Shown here in pieces: positions 7,650-14,133 of a DNA stretch of 64,000 bases (position 1 is its first letter; each line of letters starts with the position of its first letter). Position numbers and translations under genes: made by a program. The notes under the pieces were generated by a model. The model did no database searches. It was given only the letters and a program-made list of their open reading frames with translations, and was not told the DNA's origin. Origin of the DNA: a virus. Location of the stretch: positions 1 to 64,000 of IMG/VR virus record IMGVR_UViG_3300032297_000199; one strand, given 5' to 3'.

Positions 7650-7691
7650 AAATTTTTTTACAAATTTTTTACTGTGTGCTATAGACCGGGG

Positions 7692-7741
7692 CACAGTTAT
7701 ATATACAGTAGCGTCACAGTGAGTATACAGTGATCCACAGT
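7692..7741. repeat. five phased YACAGT repeats
   Basis: ACAGT at 7693, 7705, 7716, 7727, 7737. Confidence 0.75.
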
Positions 7742-7910
7742 GCGCCAGGGTTCAGGAGTCATTATCTAGGGTTTTAATGCCAATCCAAAAAACCTTTTTT
7801 ACCGCTTTGGCGCTTCGCGCTGGGGGCAGGGCTCTAAGCGGAGGCGCCCAGTTTGCTCAAACGGTTCACAGTCATAGCCGATAAATAATCCATCAACGGG
7901 ATGTTATTAA

Positions 7911-10226
7911 ATGGCTGATTCAGGAGTCTTTCCAAAAACGGGTGGTAGTACAGATCTTATCTATAAAGGTGACTACAACACTCTTCAAACGGCTGTGGCC
8001 GCAGTTAAAACTACCTATTACGGTGTGGCCTGTACTAGCAGTCAGCTAGGGAGTGGATTGCTTACTCCGTCTATTGCAGAATGGAACAATCTCAAATCGG
8101 ATATTGATAACTGTTATACACACATTACTGGTTCTGACAGTGCTGTAACTACTAAATTCAACGGTACTTTAGTTTCTGCTGTGGGCACAAATGCCTATAA
8201 GACTGCCGCAGATTATATCAATACCAACAAGGCCACAGTGTTTGCCAGCAGTCAATTGACCTTGGTCAGTGCAGCGGGCAGCTCTCGTACCAGCGGGTGG
8301 AACACTGCTATTGTACATCAAGTTAGGGTTACATTTGCCAGCAGTTCAGATGCTACTTATTTCTTCAATTGTGGGGGATATTTCCGCATACAGACTGCGG
8401 CTTCAGGTGGCAGTGGCGGAACAAAGAATACCAATTGGGCTTCTGCTATTAACAGTGTGGGCAACTGGGTTTATACCAGTGCTAATTATGGTGCTAATAA
8501 GAGCAATAGTTATGCAGTCAGTGCCTATTCTTCCAGTAGTCTTACCGTAAGCTGTACCTACGAATCAGCAACTTCTTTATTGTTTATGATGTATTTCGTT
8601 GATGATACAGGCGGAAATCCCGATGAAGTCATTGATCTCAGCATCAGCACTGATCTCAGCTACTACAAGAGTACGGGTGGTATTACCAGTCCGTTTCCAA
8701 ATGCTGTGACCAATCTAGCAACACTCGACGGCAGTGGTGGTATTGCTACACCTAGCTACTCTGTGGCGGGTGCAGGATCCACTGTTAACGAAGGTAGTAG
8801 CCTAACATTCAATGTTACCACAAGTAATGTGTCTAACGGAACTACTCTATACTGGACGGTTACCAACGCAGGGGATTTCGGTACTTCAAGTGGATCGTTC
8901 ACCATTAACAGCAATGCTGGATCATTCTCAGTTACACCAACTGCTGATTCAACTACAGAAGGCAGCGAAACATTCAGTGTCAACATTAGAACGGGCAGTA
9001 CCAGCGGAACTGTCGTGGCCAGCAGCAGTAATATTACCATTAGCGATACCAGCACAACTCCCGTGGTTGCAACCTACGGATTTGGAACTATACCCACAAG
9101 TATCAATGAGGGCAGTACAGGCGCATTCAATGTCATCACAACCAATGTTGCCAACGGAACTACCCTGTATTGGACTGCGGAAAGCAATGCAGGCGACTTT
9201 GGTACTTCAAGTGGATCGTTTACCATTACTGGCAACGCAGGCATCTTTTACCTTACACCAACTGCTGATGCTACCACAGAGGGCAGTGAAACATTCACTG
9301 TGGCCATCAGGACAGGCAGCACGGGCGGTACCATTGTGGCCACAAGCAATTCAGTTACCATTAACGATACCAGCTTGACTCCAACCTACTCGTTGTATCT
9401 ACCCTACACTTCAGTTAACGAAGGCAACAGTATTCCAGTTGTAGCCCAAACAACCAATGTGGCCAACGGTACAGTATTGTACTGGACCATCAGCAACGGT
9501 ACTACCAGCAATGCAGACTTCAGTGCTACCAGCGGTTCAGTGACAATCAACAGTGGCAGTGGTCAAATTGACATTACAGCAGTCGCGGACAGCACCACAG
9601 AAGGCAGTCAGACATTTACAGTACAACTTAGAACTGGCAGCACCAGCGGCAGTGTTGTGGCTACCAGCGGCACAATTACCATTAACGATACCAGTGTATC
9701 AGCCACGGCCGCAATAACAACCGATTTGATAGAGTCTAATTACATTGGCGGCTTGGGTGATACAACATTCCAGGCATGGACACAGCTTGCATTCTTAACA
9801 ACTGGAACCTCTCGTGCAACCATAGGTGACAATGGCGCACCTGAAACTAGATCTATTCTTTCAGGTGAATGGCTAACTACTAGCCCCACAGCAGTAAGCA
9901 CTACCACTGCTGGCTTGTTTGACATTGAATTAACTCCGTCGGCAGCAACCTTGACCATTGACGGCGATAAAACAACCTCGGGGCCCATTGGCACAACTAG
10001 AAGAACTTACAGTACAGGTACTAGTTGGAATACCAGAATACAGCTGGGCAACGATGAGATATTCAGATATTTGCTAGTTGAATTGAACGATGGTTCACCG
10101 GGTGGTACTGTTAATCACAATGCAACCGCATATTTTACAGCCACAATTTATCTACACGGAACCAATACTGTTCAAACCAGCACTGCCATAACAATGGTTT
10201 CCAGCGCAGGCTCAATTGGGGTATAA
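7911..10226 (+). CDS. virion structural/fibre protein with three Calx-beta/Ig-like repeats
   Basis: S/T/G-rich; three ~100-aa repeats (VNEG...TLYW...DF...SGS...AD.TTEGS.TF); TAAATA at 7882. Confidence 0.8.
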   Translation: MADSGVFPKTGGSTDLIYKGDYNTLQTAVAAVKTTYYGVACTSSQLGSGLLTPSIAEWNNLKSDIDNCYTHITGSDSAVTTKFNGTLVSAVGTNAYKTAADYINTNKATVFASSQLTLVSAAGSSRTSGWNTAIVHQVRVTFASSSDATYFFNCGGYFRIQTAASGGSGGTKNTNWASAINSVGNWVYTSANYGANKSNSYAVSAYSSSSLTVSCTYESATSLLFMMYFVDDTGGNPDEVIDLSISTDLSYYKSTGGITSPFPNAVTNLATLDGSGGIATPSYSVAGAGSTVNEGSSLTFNVTTSNVSNGTTLYWTVTNAGDFGTSSGSFTINSNAGSFSVTPTADSTTEGSETFSVNIRTGSTSGTVVASSSNITISDTSTTPVVATYGFGTIPTSINEGSTGAFNVITTNVANGTTLYWTAESNAGDFGTSSGSFTITGNAGIFYLTPTADATTEGSETFTVAIRTGSTGGTIVATSNSVTINDTSLTPTYSLYLPYTSVNEGNSIPVVAQTTNVANGTVLYWTISNGTTSNADFSATSGSVTINSGSGQIDITAVADSTTEGSQTFTVQLRTGSTSGSVVATSGTITINDTSVSATAAITTDLIESNYIGGLGDTTFQAWTQLAFLTTGTSRATIGDNGAPETRSILSGEWLTTSPTAVSTTTAGLFDIELTPSAATLTIDGDKTTSGPIGTTRRTYSTGTSWNTRIQLGNDEIFRYLLVELNDGSPGGTVNHNATAYFTATIYLHGTNTVQTSTAITMVSSAGSIGV

Positions 10227-10234
10227 TCTAAACT

Positions 10235-10714
10235 ATGAACATTGACATAGTTCGTCAAGATATTGAACAGTGGATAATGTCTTTCCTTGCGGTCAACAGT
10301 GCCGAGTTTGGGAACATGCCTCCATGCCCGTTTGCTCGCAGTGCTTGGCTCAACGGGCAAGTTTCAGTACGATTGGGCACCGCACCCTTTGATGATTTGG
10401 CCAATCTAACCTGGGATGATTCATTGAGTGTAGTTGTCCTGGCCTATGAAGCTGATTACATGCATCACGAAGATTTTGCCCAAATGGTCAGCAGTGCCAA
10501 TGAGGCGTTGATTCTTAAGGATTTATGGGCACTAGAAGACCACCCAAAAGCTCAAGAAACGGTGGGCAGTGTGACCTTGAATCAAGGAACCTATTCCTTG
10601 ATATTTGTACAAAAACGAAGTGCATTGACGCTGGCTCGTGCCAGTCTAAACAAGACCGACTACTACAAAAACTGGGACTCTGAATACTATCAAGCAGTAA
10701 TAGGCACAATATGA
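10235..10714 (+). CDS. hypothetical protein with PPCPFA motif (DUF1415-like)
   Basis: ORF; CPFA and DHP motifs; family call tentative. Confidence 0.6.
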   Translation: MNIDIVRQDIEQWIMSFLAVNSAEFGNMPPCPFARSAWLNGQVSVRLGTAPFDDLANLTWDDSLSVVVLAYEADYMHHEDFAQMVSSANEALILKDLWALEDHPKAQETVGSVTLNQGTYSLIFVQKRSALTLARASLNKTDYYKNWDSEYYQAVIGTI

Positions 10715-11151
10715 CATATCAGTATGCTCGTATAGATCTAGACCGTACACACTACGGAGCAAGTGTTAATTGGCGCTACGAACGAAGTCCCGATATCGAT
10801 CAGTTGAATCTAATATACAATCAATACTGTACCTATAAAAAGTTTCAGTCTGTCATGCCCATATTTGATTCACAGTACACTGATCCCAAGACAGATGTAA
10901 TTGGCTACTATGATCAAGGAAAAATGGTAGCATTCAGTCTCATGCATCGCTTCGATCATAAGAACGCTCTTTGTGCTCAGTTTGCTTGGACTTATCATAA
11001 TCCTGAATTGAGATTGGGCATTGAAAGTCTTAAAACAGAATGTGCCATCTACAAGGCACGAGGATTTGAGTATCTCTACTTGGATCAAGCTGACGCATAC
11101 AAGCAAGCTCTAGATGGGTTTGAGCTACTGGGACCTGCAATTAAATACTAG
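10711..11151 (+). CDS. GNAT-fold protein resembling the aminoacyl(Arg)-tRNA-protein transferase C-terminal domain
   Basis: MVAFSL...FAWTY...LRLGIESLKTEC...GFEYLYL parallels ATE_C LVAV...YTFYDP...SLG..SIL.EI...G..YVYLG. Confidence 0.6.
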   Translation: MTYQYARIDLDRTHYGASVNWRYERSPDIDQLNLIYNQYCTYKKFQSVMPIFDSQYTDPKTDVIGYYDQGKMVAFSLMHRFDHKNALCAQFAWTYHNPELRLGIESLKTECAIYKARGFEYLYLDQADAYKQALDGFELLGPAIKY

Positions 11152-11168
11152 CTTTAAAAGGAACCAGT

Positions 11169-12716
11169 ATGCCTCAAGTACAAGCATACAACGGTTGGGA
11201 TCAATTAGAAGAAGTATGGCTGGGCGATGTATGGCCCAAGAGTTTTTACGATGACCTAGAACCCACTGTTAGAGACAGTTTTTATCAAATAACCGACATG
11301 ACTCGGGAAGATTTAGACAATATTCAACGAGTATTAGAAGGGCTAGGCGTCAAGGTATGTAGACCTGTAATAGATGAATCTCGCAAAGATCTGTATATAA
11401 ATCCGCAAACTGGCAAACTATACAAGCCCCCTATTGCTGTTAGAGATTTAAATTGTGTGATCGGTAACACTCTTTACTTTGGCGAAACAGCATTGGAAAG
11501 ATGCTGGCGCCCGCACTTGGATCGATATGATCAAGATCCGTCAGTGTCTATTGTTAAGAATTTACCTGTAAGCGGTGCCAATGTAGTTCGATTGGGCAGA
11601 GATATAATCTTTGATCGATTCTTAGAACCAGGATATCATTTTGGTGGTATGACTGATCAAGCAGACAGAAATCGATTACTGGTAAAAGATTTTTCTGTAT
11701 TTAAAAATCAAATTATCAAACAATTTGGATCAGACCATCGAGTACATTATACTGCTAATGGTGGTCACAGTGACGGTTGTTTTATGCCTATCAAGCCCGG
11801 TGTTGTTTTGACAACTCGTTACTTTGAGGATCACGATACTTTCTTTCCTGGATGGACCAAAGTAAGATTAGATGATCCTACTTACCACGAACACAATACC
11901 TGGCCCACTGGAAGACCACCTAGATGGTTTTTACCAGGAATTAACGGGCCTGTGTTCAATGAATATGTAGAACAGTATTGTCCAGAATGGATAGGCAATT
12001 ATCAGGAAACCTTTTTTGAAGTAAATGTTCTAGTGGTTAATCCTACAACTGTACTTTGTATAGGCACACACGAAAGTTTGTTTAACAGCCTAAAAGAAAT
12101 GGGCATTAATTGTATAGTGGCTCCGTTTAGAACTAGAACATTTTGGGATGGCGGAATACACTGTAACACTCTAGACATTCGACGAAACGGCACCAAAGAA
12201 GATTTGTTTCCTAGAAGGGGCGATAACGGTCTTGGCATTGTTCTAACAGAACTAGCTGACAATTTTAATAAGGTGTATGCCGGACAATTACCAATCAGTA
12301 CTGCTGCTAAGACAAAAGTGTTTAACTTCAATGATGAAAATTGGAGAGAGCATAAAACTCCTGAAAATAACAAAGTTAATAACAGTATGAACATATATCA
12401 CATATGGTGTGATAAAGCTGAAGGAATTACAGATGCCGCCTGGGTAGAAAAAATGAATCAGTTTTTTAACAAGCTGGTAAACGATAAGAAAATGGTCTCT
12501 TATCGTATTACAAGATGCAAGTTAGGATTCCGCAGTATAGCCGATTTACCAGAGTGGCATATCATGTGCGAGTTCCTTAGCTTACAACAGTTAGATGATT
12601 GTTTCGGGACTGTGGCGTTGAAGCAAGGTCAGTTAGAAGAACAACATCAGGGCTTCAATCAGTTTGTAGGACCAAACATACACCACGCTCTGTATAGAGA
12701 CTGGCCTGATAAGTGA
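11169..12716 (+). CDS. amidinotransferase (glycine/inosamine-phosphate amidinotransferase family) fused to a C-terminal DUF6614-like domain
   Basis: N.WD.LEEVWLG, RD, HSDG and FWDGGIHC.TLD.RR pentein motifs including the catalytic Cys; extra ~110-aa domain from MNIYHIWCD. Confidence 0.8.
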   Translation: MPQVQAYNGWDQLEEVWLGDVWPKSFYDDLEPTVRDSFYQITDMTREDLDNIQRVLEGLGVKVCRPVIDESRKDLYINPQTGKLYKPPIAVRDLNCVIGNTLYFGETALERCWRPHLDRYDQDPSVSIVKNLPVSGANVVRLGRDIIFDRFLEPGYHFGGMTDQADRNRLLVKDFSVFKNQIIKQFGSDHRVHYTANGGHSDGCFMPIKPGVVLTTRYFEDHDTFFPGWTKVRLDDPTYHEHNTWPTGRPPRWFLPGINGPVFNEYVEQYCPEWIGNYQETFFEVNVLVVNPTTVLCIGTHESLFNSLKEMGINCIVAPFRTRTFWDGGIHCNTLDIRRNGTKEDLFPRRGDNGLGIVLTELADNFNKVYAGQLPISTAAKTKVFNFNDENWREHKTPENNKVNNSMNIYHIWCDKAEGITDAAWVEKMNQFFNKLVNDKKMVSYRITRCKLGFRSIADLPEWHIMCEFLSLQQLDDCFGTVALKQGQLEEQHQGFNQFVGPNIHHALYRDWPDK

Positions 12717-12731
12717 CCTAGTAAATATCTC

Positions 12732-12935
12732 ATGGAAACTAAAACAAGAACTATAGTTAGAATGTTAACCTATCGGTTAACTGCGTGGTCGTTTACTATT
12801 CTGTGGACTTACATGTTCACGGGCAATATTGCCAATGCTACAGGATTTGCCACAGCTTTGCATATCTTATTAAGTATAGATTATTACATCCACGAACGAA
12901 TTTGGTTAAAGATCAAATGGGGTAAAACTCAATAA
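12732..12935 (+). CDS. DUF2061-like small membrane protein
   Basis: ET..RTIV...TYR...YYIHERIW..IKWG signature. Confidence 0.8.
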   Translation: METKTRTIVRMLTYRLTAWSFTILWTYMFTGNIANATGFATALHILLSIDYYIHERIWLKIKWGKTQ

Positions 12936-12937
12936 CC

Positions 12938-13708
12938 ATGATAGATATTGAATCTTATAAAATATTAGGTAATCTACCTAAACATATTAAATGGGAATGG
13001 TCGGAAACAATTGTTAAAATTTTCTTTAATGTGTTTTCTAAAAATATCCCTTACGGCGATGCTATTGACCTTGGTGCAAATTATGGCATACATTCGTGGA
13101 ATCTAGGAAATATTGTTAAAAAGACAGGCAATACTCTAGTTGCTGTGGAGCCTGATCCAAGATGTTATGAATTTTTAAATGATGTGCTCGACACAGGTAA
13201 TTTTAAAAGTATATTAATTAAGAATCCAATATCCTATGCAGGAAATATATCAAAATTTCGATTGCATCCGCAAGTACAGCTTAGTAAACTAATCGAAGAT
13301 AAACTAGAGCATAAAGAAAGTGACATAGAAGTACAAACTTTATCTCTTGATACTATTGCCGCACCTTACATACCGAAATATATTAAAATTGATGTTGAAG
13401 GGCAAGACATTAACGCAGTTAAAGGCGGTCAAAATACTATCATAACTCATAGACCAATCATTTCAACTGAATGGAGCACATCTTATTCTACAGGTGATCA
13501 AATTTGGTATTACCATTTTTTTAAGAATTTAAATTATAAAATGATAGACTTTTTAGGGAATGAATATGATGCAGAGCATTGGATGAGCGACTGGCATCCT
13601 TATTGGAATAGATTTTTAGTACCTGCAGAACACTGTAGGCTTTTTGAATTTAAGAAACAACTTGACTATATGTTCCAGCATCATGGAATGGAAAATATAC
13701 TTAAATAA
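12938..13708 (+). CDS. FkbM-family SAM methyltransferase
   Basis: DLGANYG, AVEPD and KIDVEG motifs. Confidence 0.88.
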   Translation: MIDIESYKILGNLPKHIKWEWSETIVKIFFNVFSKNIPYGDAIDLGANYGIHSWNLGNIVKKTGNTLVAVEPDPRCYEFLNDVLDTGNFKSILIKNPISYAGNISKFRLHPQVQLSKLIEDKLEHKESDIEVQTLSLDTIAAPYIPKYIKIDVEGQDINAVKGGQNTIITHRPIISTEWSTSYSTGDQIWYYHFFKNLNYKMIDFLGNEYDAEHWMSDWHPYWNRFLVPAEHCRLFEFKKQLDYMFQHHGMENILK

Positions 13709-13728
13709 ATATGTGATTAGGAGATATT

Positions 13729-14133
13729 ATGGCTGTTACTGTACCTACGGGTTATACACTTACTTGGATTATCAGAAATGCGGAATTAATTCGTAGCATC
13801 ACCGTCGGTGGTGTGGAATTTACGGATGTAGTTTGCAACCTCACTTATAGATTGCGAGCTATGAATCAATATGGGCGCGGTATTGCTATAGACAGTCAAG
13901 TTGAAATACCTATTGATGCAGTTGATCCAGAAACATTCATCGAATTTACATCGATGACTCAAGAACAGGCAGCTACATGGTTAAAAACACAGCTAGGCGA
14001 AACTATTGTTGAACAGCTAGAAACTCGTGCTCTTGCACAGTTACAAAATCCAGATCATGTTTATCTACCGGAAAAAGGCATGCCTTGGTATCATCAAGAT
14101 CCCTACGATAGCATGCCCCGTCAATATCCGTAA
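13729..14133 (+). CDS. fibre-associated small protein (paralogue of three genes at 53.6-55.0 kb)
   Basis: Shared pattern VV..(L/V/I).(Y/W/F)...F.(P/E)(F/Y)..LT.E....W...PW; AGGAG RBS. Confidence 0.7.
   Translation: MAVTVPTGYTLTWIIRNAELIRSITVGGVEFTDVVCNLTYRLRAMNQYGRGIAIDSQVEIPIDAVDPETFIEFTSMTQEQAATWLKTQLGETIVEQLETRALAQLQNPDHVYLPEKGMPWYHQDPYDSMPRQYP

Follow-up and report, generated by a model that had tools for sequence, protein, structure and literature searches.

ATE1 and Bpt, which have a GNAT-fold C-domain in common with one of the proteins described here, add amino acids from tRNA to protein N-termini. A second system for comparison is that for argolaphos in Streptomyces monomycini, in which a tRNA-dependent ligase (AglC) and a small non-P450, cysteine-ligated haem enzyme (AglA) act on the guanidine of arginine. 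According to the report on AglA (PMC12866846), the enzyme belongs to the YqcI/YcgG family, has a four-stranded 'sandwich' fold, binds haem through Cys44, and hydroxylates the guanidine of AMPn-Arg, which is made with AglC, ArgRS, tRNA and arginine; the argolaphos gene cluster also contains GNAT-type ligases (PMC8976061). A further family, DUF6875, renamed cytochrome P422 in a preprint (bioRxiv 10.64898/2025.12.11.692455), is described there as having thiolate-ligated haem with the ligand in an RxGxVCP motif and tryptophan derivatives as substrates. Here we describe three open reading frames (ORF1, ORF2 and ORF3) in the first 64,000 nucleotides (the window) of the virus record IMGVR_UViG_3300032297_000199. 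They encode a protein that is probably a small haem enzyme of the AglA or cytochrome P422 kind, a GNAT that is probably an aminoacyl-tRNA-dependent transferase, and an amidinotransferase fused to a DUF6614 domain, and we propose, with about even confidence, that they belong to a late-expressed cassette for making or modifying a molecule that carries arginine or guanidine.

The IMG/VR record from which the window is taken is 82,344 bp long, with a CheckV completeness of 23%. The contig encodes a tail sheath, a tail tube, a large terminase, a DnaB-type helicase and a single-strand DNA-binding protein, and is thus from a contractile-tailed phage; the source is an uncultured giant freshwater phage, a myovirus of ~350 kb. 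Genomes of relatives carrying the same cassette are 338–374 kb long, and some have terminal repeats and are rated 97–100% complete. A first-pass annotation had reported three adjacent, co-oriented genes at this locus, and that gene structure is borne out exactly:

10235..10714, + strand: ORF1, 159 aa, a small alpha/beta sandwich protein, with Cys31 at 10325-10327
10711..11151, + strand: ORF2, 146 aa, a single-domain GNAT of a phage branch of the ATE_C superfamily
11169..12716, + strand: ORF3, 515 aa, amidinotransferase plus linker plus DUF6614
11169..12218, + strand: ORF3 residues 1-350, amidinotransferase domain, with phmmer matches in the PDB and invariant catalytic residues
12219..12386, + strand: ORF3 residues 351-406, linker, with no in-frame stop codon
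12387..12716, + strand: ORF3 residues 407-515, DUF6614 domain (Pfam), beginning with its own Met

The end of ORF1 shares 4 nt (ATGA) with the start of ORF2, and the 17 nt gap between ORF2 and ORF3 has an AAGGA-like stretch preceding the ORF3 ATG. Reading frames likewise overlap or nearly touch in the cassettes of relatives. Contigs from other samples (~92–94% identity), one of them from another study's freshwater metagenome, hold the block from ORF1 to the DUF2061 gene downstream of ORF3 uninterrupted.

The association of these genes recurs widely. Among the best 80 of 186 viral stretches encoding an ORF2 relative, ORF1 is adjacent in 76 and DUF6614 likewise in 76. The four loci lacking ORF1 have at most ~600 nt between the start of the retrieved sequence and ORF2, and in the four lacking DUF6614 the sequence ends soon after ORF2. 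ORF2 (66–74% identity) and DUF6614 (51–60%) are much more strongly conserved than ORF1 (35–42%). The amidinotransferase, by contrast, is inside the cassette in only five of the 80 loci (and outside it in 75), and other neighbours in the window, including the flanking structural genes, accompany the cassette in none; the conserved core is therefore ORF1–ORF2–DUF6614. Viewed from the other side, among the best 80 of at least 578 viral stretches encoding a relative of the amidinotransferase, cassette genes are in the flanks of 19 (ORF1 in 16, ORF2 in 19 and DUF6614 in 10) and directly beside the amidinotransferase in 18. There are at least four gene orders: orf1–orf2–amidinotransferase–DUF6614, orf1–orf2–DUF6614–amidinotransferase, orf1–amidinotransferase–orf2–DUF6614, and a divergent long ORF2 with orf1–amidinotransferase. 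Two loci (L106, 3583-7005, and L152, 2229-7119) have two amidinotransferase paralogues per cassette, and in L106 these are from different deep clades and sit on either side of DUF6614.

A quick maximum-likelihood tree of the amidinotransferases (75 rows, from 86 less 11 identical duplicates, with reading frames trimmed to the first 400 residues) places the cassette-linked members in two deep clades that are only ~28–32% identical to each other. All seven rows of the first clade, which includes the window, are linked, as are 14 of 20 rows in the second, each clade with support of 99, and 5–6 label changes are needed as against ~19 in shuffles. The tree leaves out three matches of <300 aa or ≤150 bits, a partial protein from L013, and L117, where the amidinotransferase is cut by the contig end; L095, where ORF2 is 5 kb away, was labelled solo. 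At the level of whole genomes, all five large phage genomes or contigs with a cassette lacking the amidinotransferase encode one or two full-length amidinotransferases elsewhere (E 1e-77 to 1e-96), and each of the five genomes with a 'solo' amidinotransferase locus also has a homologue of ORF2 (E 1e-52 to 1e-65), such that both families are present in ten of the ten large phage genomes tested. Up to two full-length amidinotransferase paralogues plus one distant one are present in giant phage genomes. Three observations together, the fusion in ORF3, an adjacency that recurs in changing gene order among deeply diverged enzymes, and the occurrence of both families in the same genomes, make a shared function much likelier than a chance neighbourhood. 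Thus the genes do co-occur elsewhere, and the three-gene module proposed in the first-pass annotation stands as a recurrent association, although the unit that is conserved is ORF1–ORF2–DUF6614 and the amidinotransferase is an occasional member of it.

The amidinotransferase domain of ORF3 holds H200-S-D202 and G328-G-I-H-C332, the two motifs (H-x-D and GGIHC) by which it had been recognized initially, and D93, D145, H200, D202, H331 and C332 are invariant in all 24 aligned relatives (codons at 11445-11447 for D93, 11601-11603 for D145, 11766-11768 for H200, 11772-11774 for D202, and 12162-12164 for C332). We take C332, H200, D145, D202 and D93 to have the catalytic (Cys-His-Asp) or substrate-binding (Asp) roles assigned in the AGAT literature, and judging from the alignment the domain looks catalytically intact. 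Searching the PDB with ORF3 using phmmer gave seven sequences at E≤10, all of them amidinotransferases, with the Cys and His motifs aligned: HsvA (5wpi; E 5.9e-7), SxtG (6u1r; 8.5e-7), StrB1 (1bwd; 2.1e-5) and AGAT (1jdx; 2e-4 to 3e-3). The match spans only ~63 residues, corresponding to the C-terminal catalytic block, which is homologous in these enzymes and keeps the Cys, His and Asp. No amidinotransferase model in Pfam (E≤0.1) or NCBIfam (E≤1) matches the domain, so the family is highly divergent; it also differs from the solved enzymes in being fused to DUF6614 and in being widespread in viral contigs.

The C-terminal 109 residues of ORF3 match Pfam DUF6614 (PF20319; E 2.6e-19, 69.8 bits, cut-off 25), which supports the earlier description of the amidinotransferase as a fusion protein. 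Residues 407-515 alone score 74.9 bits, all 13 aligned relatives match the model, and the 13-sequence alignment has 39 invariant columns. No other Pfam or PDB match was found for the domain (best E 0.67 for its profile against the PDB), and at a guess from its sequence it may adopt a ferredoxin-like beta-alpha-beta-beta-alpha-beta fold. In most relatives DUF6614 is a separate gene of 108–112 aa (e.g. L073, L025 and L085). The fused architecture is shared by two further proteins, P0249 (98% identical, 515 aa) and P0250 (56% identical, 489 aa), and is thus no slip of assembly. The linker starts with RGxNGxGI..TEL, the tail common to stand-alone amidinotransferases of the same clade, and in L085 a single base separates the stop of the amidinotransferase from the start of DUF6614, so loss of a stop codon would suffice to create the fusion. 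Druad1, a 44-aa anti-Druantia protein labelled 'predicted DUF6614' and without homologues according to bioRxiv 10.1101/2024.04.14.589459, was considered and judged uninformative. An antisense reading frame of 130 aa (12002-12394, - strand) lies inside the amidinotransferase gene and is most likely spurious.

ORF2 is related to ATE_C through intermediate homologues and through its fold. An exhaustive phmmer search with ORF2 gave 122 representatives at E≤0.001, and of ten weaker homologues (225–268 aa) compared with ATE_C seven are above the cut-off, two are below it and one has no match. A profile of 24 family members run against the PDB has ATE1 in all of its top five places (E 0.009–0.035). 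The AlphaFold2 model (pLDDT 95.7) finds aminoacyl-tRNA-dependent transferases at Foldseek ranks 1–13 (Sba18/Sbb17, Kluyveromyces lactis Ate1 and MprF/aaPGS; E 4.7e-6 to 3.9e-5), including KlAte1 7wfx at E 1.6e-5, with human ATE1 8tzv at E 2.9e-4. VIA-align superimposes it on 8tzv with Z 11.0 and a root-mean-square deviation (rmsd) of 2.8 over 141 residues, as a GNAT fold like the ATE1 core, and gives higher scores for FemX (Z 14.4) and MprF (Z 14.3). Sba18/Sbb17, MprF/aaPGS and FemX are thus the best structural company of ORF2, at 9–20% identity; those enzymes are built of two GNAT-like lobes or carry additional domains; ORF2 has a single domain and aligns to the second lobe only of two-lobed enzymes. 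Reading by eye, ATE1 and ORF2 have a common block around the yLyLG...YK region. The GNAT motif for binding CoA is Q/R-x-x-G-x-G/A, and the corresponding loop of ORF2 reads LRLGIES, which on this comparison appears to depart from it. Taken together, the sequence and model comparisons suggest that ORF2 is probably an aminoacyl-tRNA-dependent transferase. The AglC-type ligases are larger, Fem-type GNATs of ~340 aa, in contrast to the one-domain, 146-aa, ATE_C-like ORF2.

Longer cassette-linked forms of ORF2 (222–245 aa) are present in L086 (5273-5977, - strand), L087, L138, L144, L153 and L155, where they are divergent or convergent to ORF1. Two of the six are above the ATE_C cut-off and none has ATE_N at E≤1; the N-terminal extension of ~85–105 aa is without a known family.

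The letters C-P-F-A, from which ORF1 had been named the 'CPFA protein', are its residues 31–34. C31 is invariant in all 22 aligned family members, in the motif PPCP[FY]AR, and D102-H103-P104 are also invariant in the alignment. There is no Pfam match to ORF1 at E≤0.1, the family profile finds nothing meaningful among PDB sequences (best E 0.3), and Foldseek of the model returns nothing at E≤0.001. The AlphaFold2 model (pLDDT 91.3) has a four-stranded sheet with flanking helices, and in a VIA-align comparison against 48,161 representative chains apo-AglA alone stands out from the rest (Z 7.2 over 146 aligned residues, with 4.2 as the next best score). In a second comparison four AglA entries scored Z 7.6–7.9 and all others ≤4.2. 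These alignments have rmsd values of 3.6–3.9 over 141–147 of the 159 residues, and Z scores of 7–8 are 'middling' in the terms of the tool. AglA is the only solved structure to which the ORF1 model shows a likeness even at this level. Weak matches to DUF6875 (PF21780), all in the N-terminal part of that model, are present in 18 of the 22 family members (E≤10; best E 0.0031), and among the Atlas neighbours of ORF1 are clusters that carry the labels DUF6875 and DUF1415 in part. Three bacterial genomes were searched for a true DUF6875 member to set beside ORF1, and none was found. Cytochrome P422 is described as a thiolate-ligated haem protein of non-P450 fold in which Pro follows the ligand Cys; C31 of ORF1 is likewise followed by Pro, with its PPCP matching only part of RxGxVCP.

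We therefore regard ORF1 as a probable haem enzyme of the AglA or cytochrome P422 kind, small and with cysteine as the haem ligand, and put the chance that it binds haem at about even. This kinship was missed in the first-pass annotation, and it changes the chemistry proposed there, which was aminoacylation followed by guanidinylation of a protein, glycan or small molecule; our results lend no support to that order of events and point to no protein or glycan as the target. Prompted by a 'PCPY'-like motif of Bpt, we also considered that ORF1 might supply the N-terminal half in an ATE split over two genes, and dropped the idea; ORF1 has no ATE_N match at E≤0.1 and the fold search led to AglA.

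In the pathway that we propose, ORF2 would transfer an amino acid from a charged tRNA to an amine acceptor, with arginine as the first guess because of the kinship to ATE. ORF1 would bind haem via its invariant cysteine and oxidize the product, for example by hydroxylating a guanidine nitrogen, with electrons drawn from ferredoxin-type donors of the host. The amidinotransferase would move the amidino group of arginine to an amine of the same pathway, either making the guanidine acceptor or guanidinylating the product, and DUF6614, the most conserved partner, may bind or act on the same intermediate, as the two are fused in ORF3. We infer each activity, the use of tRNA, the binding of haem, the order of the steps and the acceptor from the gene structure, family and fold kinships, intact catalytic residues, fusion and recurrent linkage that we observe; a small molecule is favoured over a protein as the acceptor. 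If the cassette does build such a guanidine compound, a prospect that we regard as evenly balanced, it would by analogy be the chemistry of a bacterial tRNA-dependent ligase and haem guanidine oxygenase, miniaturized, virus-borne and with new partners. The phage set differs from the argolaphos system in having no phosphonate genes and in adding DUF6614 and the amidinotransferase. If the proposal is right, charged tRNA would serve virus-encoded chemistry outside translation, and phages would have miniature forms of tRNA-dependent GNAT ligases and of non-P450 haem-thiolate oxygenases, two kinds of enzyme known so far only from bacterial pathways for antibiotics. The amidinotransferase–DUF6614 fusion offers a direct handle, as it names two parts that would touch the same intermediate.

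A bolder and more tentative form of this proposal, which we consider doubtful, is that giant freshwater phages run their own late tRNA-dependent natural-product pathway, in which ORF2, ORF1, the amidinotransferase and DUF6614 would yield an aminoacylated, N-hydroxylated guanidine compound. Such a compound could be an antimetabolite, a donor of the nitric-oxide or hydroxyurea type, or a DNA-condensing guanidino-polyamine, directed at the host or at competitors. In that case it would be the first pathway encoded by a virus to draw on charged tRNA for a purpose other than translation.

Several observations weigh against a guanidine-tailoring cassette. For ORF1, the window protein matches DUF6875 at E 0.14 and 12.6 bits, below the gathering cut-off of 24.5, and so does every DUF6875 match of the 22 family members scanned fall below it. 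PF08892 (YqcI/YcgG) has no match at E≤10 in the whole contig and is absent from the matches of the same 22 members at E≤10, and hhalign of the ORF1 family with two cyanobacterial YqcI proteins gives a probability of 0.1. ORF1 thus fails both sequence-level tests of kinship to YqcI/YcgG, and at 159 aa it is shorter than the AglA chains of ~240 residues; Cys31 is only a putative equivalent of AglA Cys44. No Fer2 ferredoxin above cut-off is present in the contig or in four relatives' genomes that are 97–100% complete, the only two Fer2 matches (both in G005) being below cut-off and with internal stops. Relatives of ORF1 are often alone, in cultured cyanophages and in bacteria. For ORF2, its own match to Pfam ATE_C (PF04377) is at E 0.031 and 15.3 bits, below the cut-off of 25, and no ATE_N (PF04376) is found in it at E≤0.1, so ORF2 is outside strict ATE/Bpt membership; it is also about half the size of those enzymes and has partners that are not of the N-degron type. 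The acetyltransferase VipF scores Z 14.4 with ORF2 in VIA-align and many plain acetyl-CoA GNATs score Z 11–13, nearly as high as the tRNA-dependent enzymes, so the acyl donor is not settled by the fold. The initial description of ORF2 as a GNAT resembling aminoacyl-tRNA transferases accordingly holds for the fold and for the relationship to ATE_C, and its Foldseek company agrees with it, but not for membership of the ATE family itself. For the amidinotransferase, its rarity within ORF2-based cassettes is matched by the absence of a nearby cassette gene in 61 of the 80 amidinotransferase loci. No partner is constant beside the 'solo' phage amidinotransferases: their neighbours are genes for DnaB in 14 loci, for fibre-like proteins in 12, for primase in 10 and for radical-SAM-like proteins in 7. 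Finally, the ten genomes with both families are from related giant phages and so are not independent, and shared descent could explain the co-occurrence.

The surroundings of the cassette bear on the alternatives, and its immediate neighbours are as follows:

7880..7889, + strand: T4-type late-promoter-like motif GATAAATAAT, ~22 nt 5' of the 771-aa gene heading the transcription unit
7911..10226, + strand: 771-aa repeat protein with a Calx-beta domain, ending 8 nt 5' of ORF1; outside the conserved cassette
12732..12935, + strand: DUF2061 small membrane protein, 67 aa, retained in close strains; outside the conserved cassette
12938-13708: FkbM-type methyltransferase gene, downstream of the DUF2061 gene

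We label GATAAATAAT from its likeness to TATAAATA, which we take to be the T4-type late-promoter consensus. A long non-coding stretch (7650-7910) precedes the Calx-beta gene, and the motif falls at its end. Between 7200 and 14300, consensus scans find neither promoters nor terminators more often than expected (14 promoter-like sites as against an expectation of 18.0). The 8-nt gap, the ATGA overlap, the upstream late-promoter-like motif and the lack of an internal promoter or terminator excess lead us to the view that the cassette genes are probably read as one late transcript, and the Calx-beta gene is probably co-transcribed with ORF1. Neither the Calx-beta gene nor the DUF2061 gene is present in any of the 80 ORF2-based loci.

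These neighbours suggest a first alternative, that the enzymes decorate the virion by modifying structural proteins encoded on the late transcript that they share, for instance the Calx-beta protein or the 1534-aa collagen-like fibre (Gly-X-Thr) encoded downstream of the cassette; the chemistry could be, for example, amino-acid addition or the amidination of lysine or ornithine side chains. The late-promoter-like motif and a structural-type gene 8 nt upstream are consistent with this, and in relatives the cassettes sit behind putative baseplate-hub-like genes (named by eye), while in cyanomyovirus Syn1 the ORF1 relative is two genes upstream of gp25 and gp6. ATE enzymes do modify proteins, and an amidinotransferase of cyanophage S-SCSM2R, 28% identical to that of ORF3, was found in the virion proteome (PMC12801897). 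The authors of that study, however, doubt that it is structural. To our knowledge, the known amidinotransferases all act on small molecules, and the structural genes flanking the cassette in the window accompany it in none of the 80 ORF2-based loci. AglA- and P422-type enzymes and tRNA-dependent GNATs of the fold class of ORF2 are otherwise known from small-molecule or lipid pathways. We consider virion decoration unlikely.

A second alternative is that the amidinotransferase and the cassette make guanidino derivatives for DNA packaging or defence evasion, by modification of polyamines, nucleotides or DNA. The closest solved relative of the amidinotransferase is HsvA, which we take to be a polyamine amidinotransferase, the genomes are giant (338–374 kb), and the solo amidinotransferases often adjoin DnaB or primase genes. 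The cassette itself, on the other hand, is among late and structural genes and not replication genes, it shows no enzyme for modifying DNA, such as a transglycosylase or hmU kinase, and ORF1, ORF2 and DUF6614 have no observed link to nucleic acids. This makes modification of polyamines or nucleic acids quite unlikely as the role of the cassette.

Third, ORF2 alone could add an amino acid to the N-termini of host or phage proteins for Clp proteases, as in N-degron tagging, with its neighbours as passengers. ATE_C is the only named family that ORF2 touches, and the activity of ATE1 and Bpt is of this kind, but the lack of ATE_N and the score below the ATE_C cut-off argue against it, and it leaves unexplained both the coupling of ORF2 to ORF1 and DUF6614 (76 of 80 each) and the repeated recruitment and fusion of the amidinotransferase; we think it very unlikely. 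That these are independent accessory genes, chance neighbours in a variable island with no common pathway, is highly improbable and disfavoured, for while most cassettes lack the amidinotransferase, most amidinotransferases are elsewhere and the adjoining FkbM gene is a strain-specific insertion, the fusion with DUF6614 occurs in two lineages, adjacency recurs in several gene orders and two deep amidinotransferase clades, the amidinotransferase and ORF2 families are both in all ten genomes, and the reading frames overlap or nearly touch.

The FkbM gene (window 12936-13710) has been inserted or deleted in a strain-specific way: in contigs of three other runs, position 12935 is followed directly by the letters of 13711-13740, where the DUF7936 gene starts. 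There are no tRNA genes within the window.

Beyond the cassette, the metagenome protein set contains 2642 relatives of ORF2 at E≤0.001, and neither ORF2 nor DUF6614 has a tblastn match in 50,697 deposited phage records, nor do the three genes at the DNA level match deposited phages; the function of the cassette thus belongs to a large uncultured group. We found no paper in the literature on a phage ATE-like or tRNA-dependent GNAT cassette. Stand-alone relatives of ORF1 (23–29% identity) are in the cyanomyoviruses S-PM2, Syn1 and S-RIM44 and in pelagiphage-like and roseophage genomes. In bacterial genome contigs 15 ORF1 relatives were confirmed by a pattern search, and among contigs of bacterial metagenome-assembled genomes the triad is present in two, orf1–orf2–amidinotransferase in one and orf1–amidinotransferase in one.

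In the cyanobacterium Dolichospermum sp. LEGE 00240 the close neighbours of an ORF1-like gene include a true YqcI/YcgG gene (E 8.6e-34) and genes for a PhyH dioxygenase, a Rieske oxygenase and an SDR, and in Heteroscytonema a YqcI/YcgG gene is ~1 kb from the ORF1-like gene. The neighbourhood looks like an uncharacterised arginine-derived natural-product cluster, and as context, not proof, it places the ORF1 family in oxidative, guanidine-type secondary metabolism. The cluster is conserved in Dolichospermum sp. LEGE 00240 and Heteroscytonema crispum (L171, 1815-8378; L179, 603-3427). In Dolichospermum the order is an FG-GAP protein, YqcI/YcgG, an unassigned 279-aa protein, the ORF1-like protein, PhyH, a Rieske/VanA oxygenase and the SDR; the first three of these genes are also read in Heteroscytonema, and the 279-aa protein is GNAT-like by eye.

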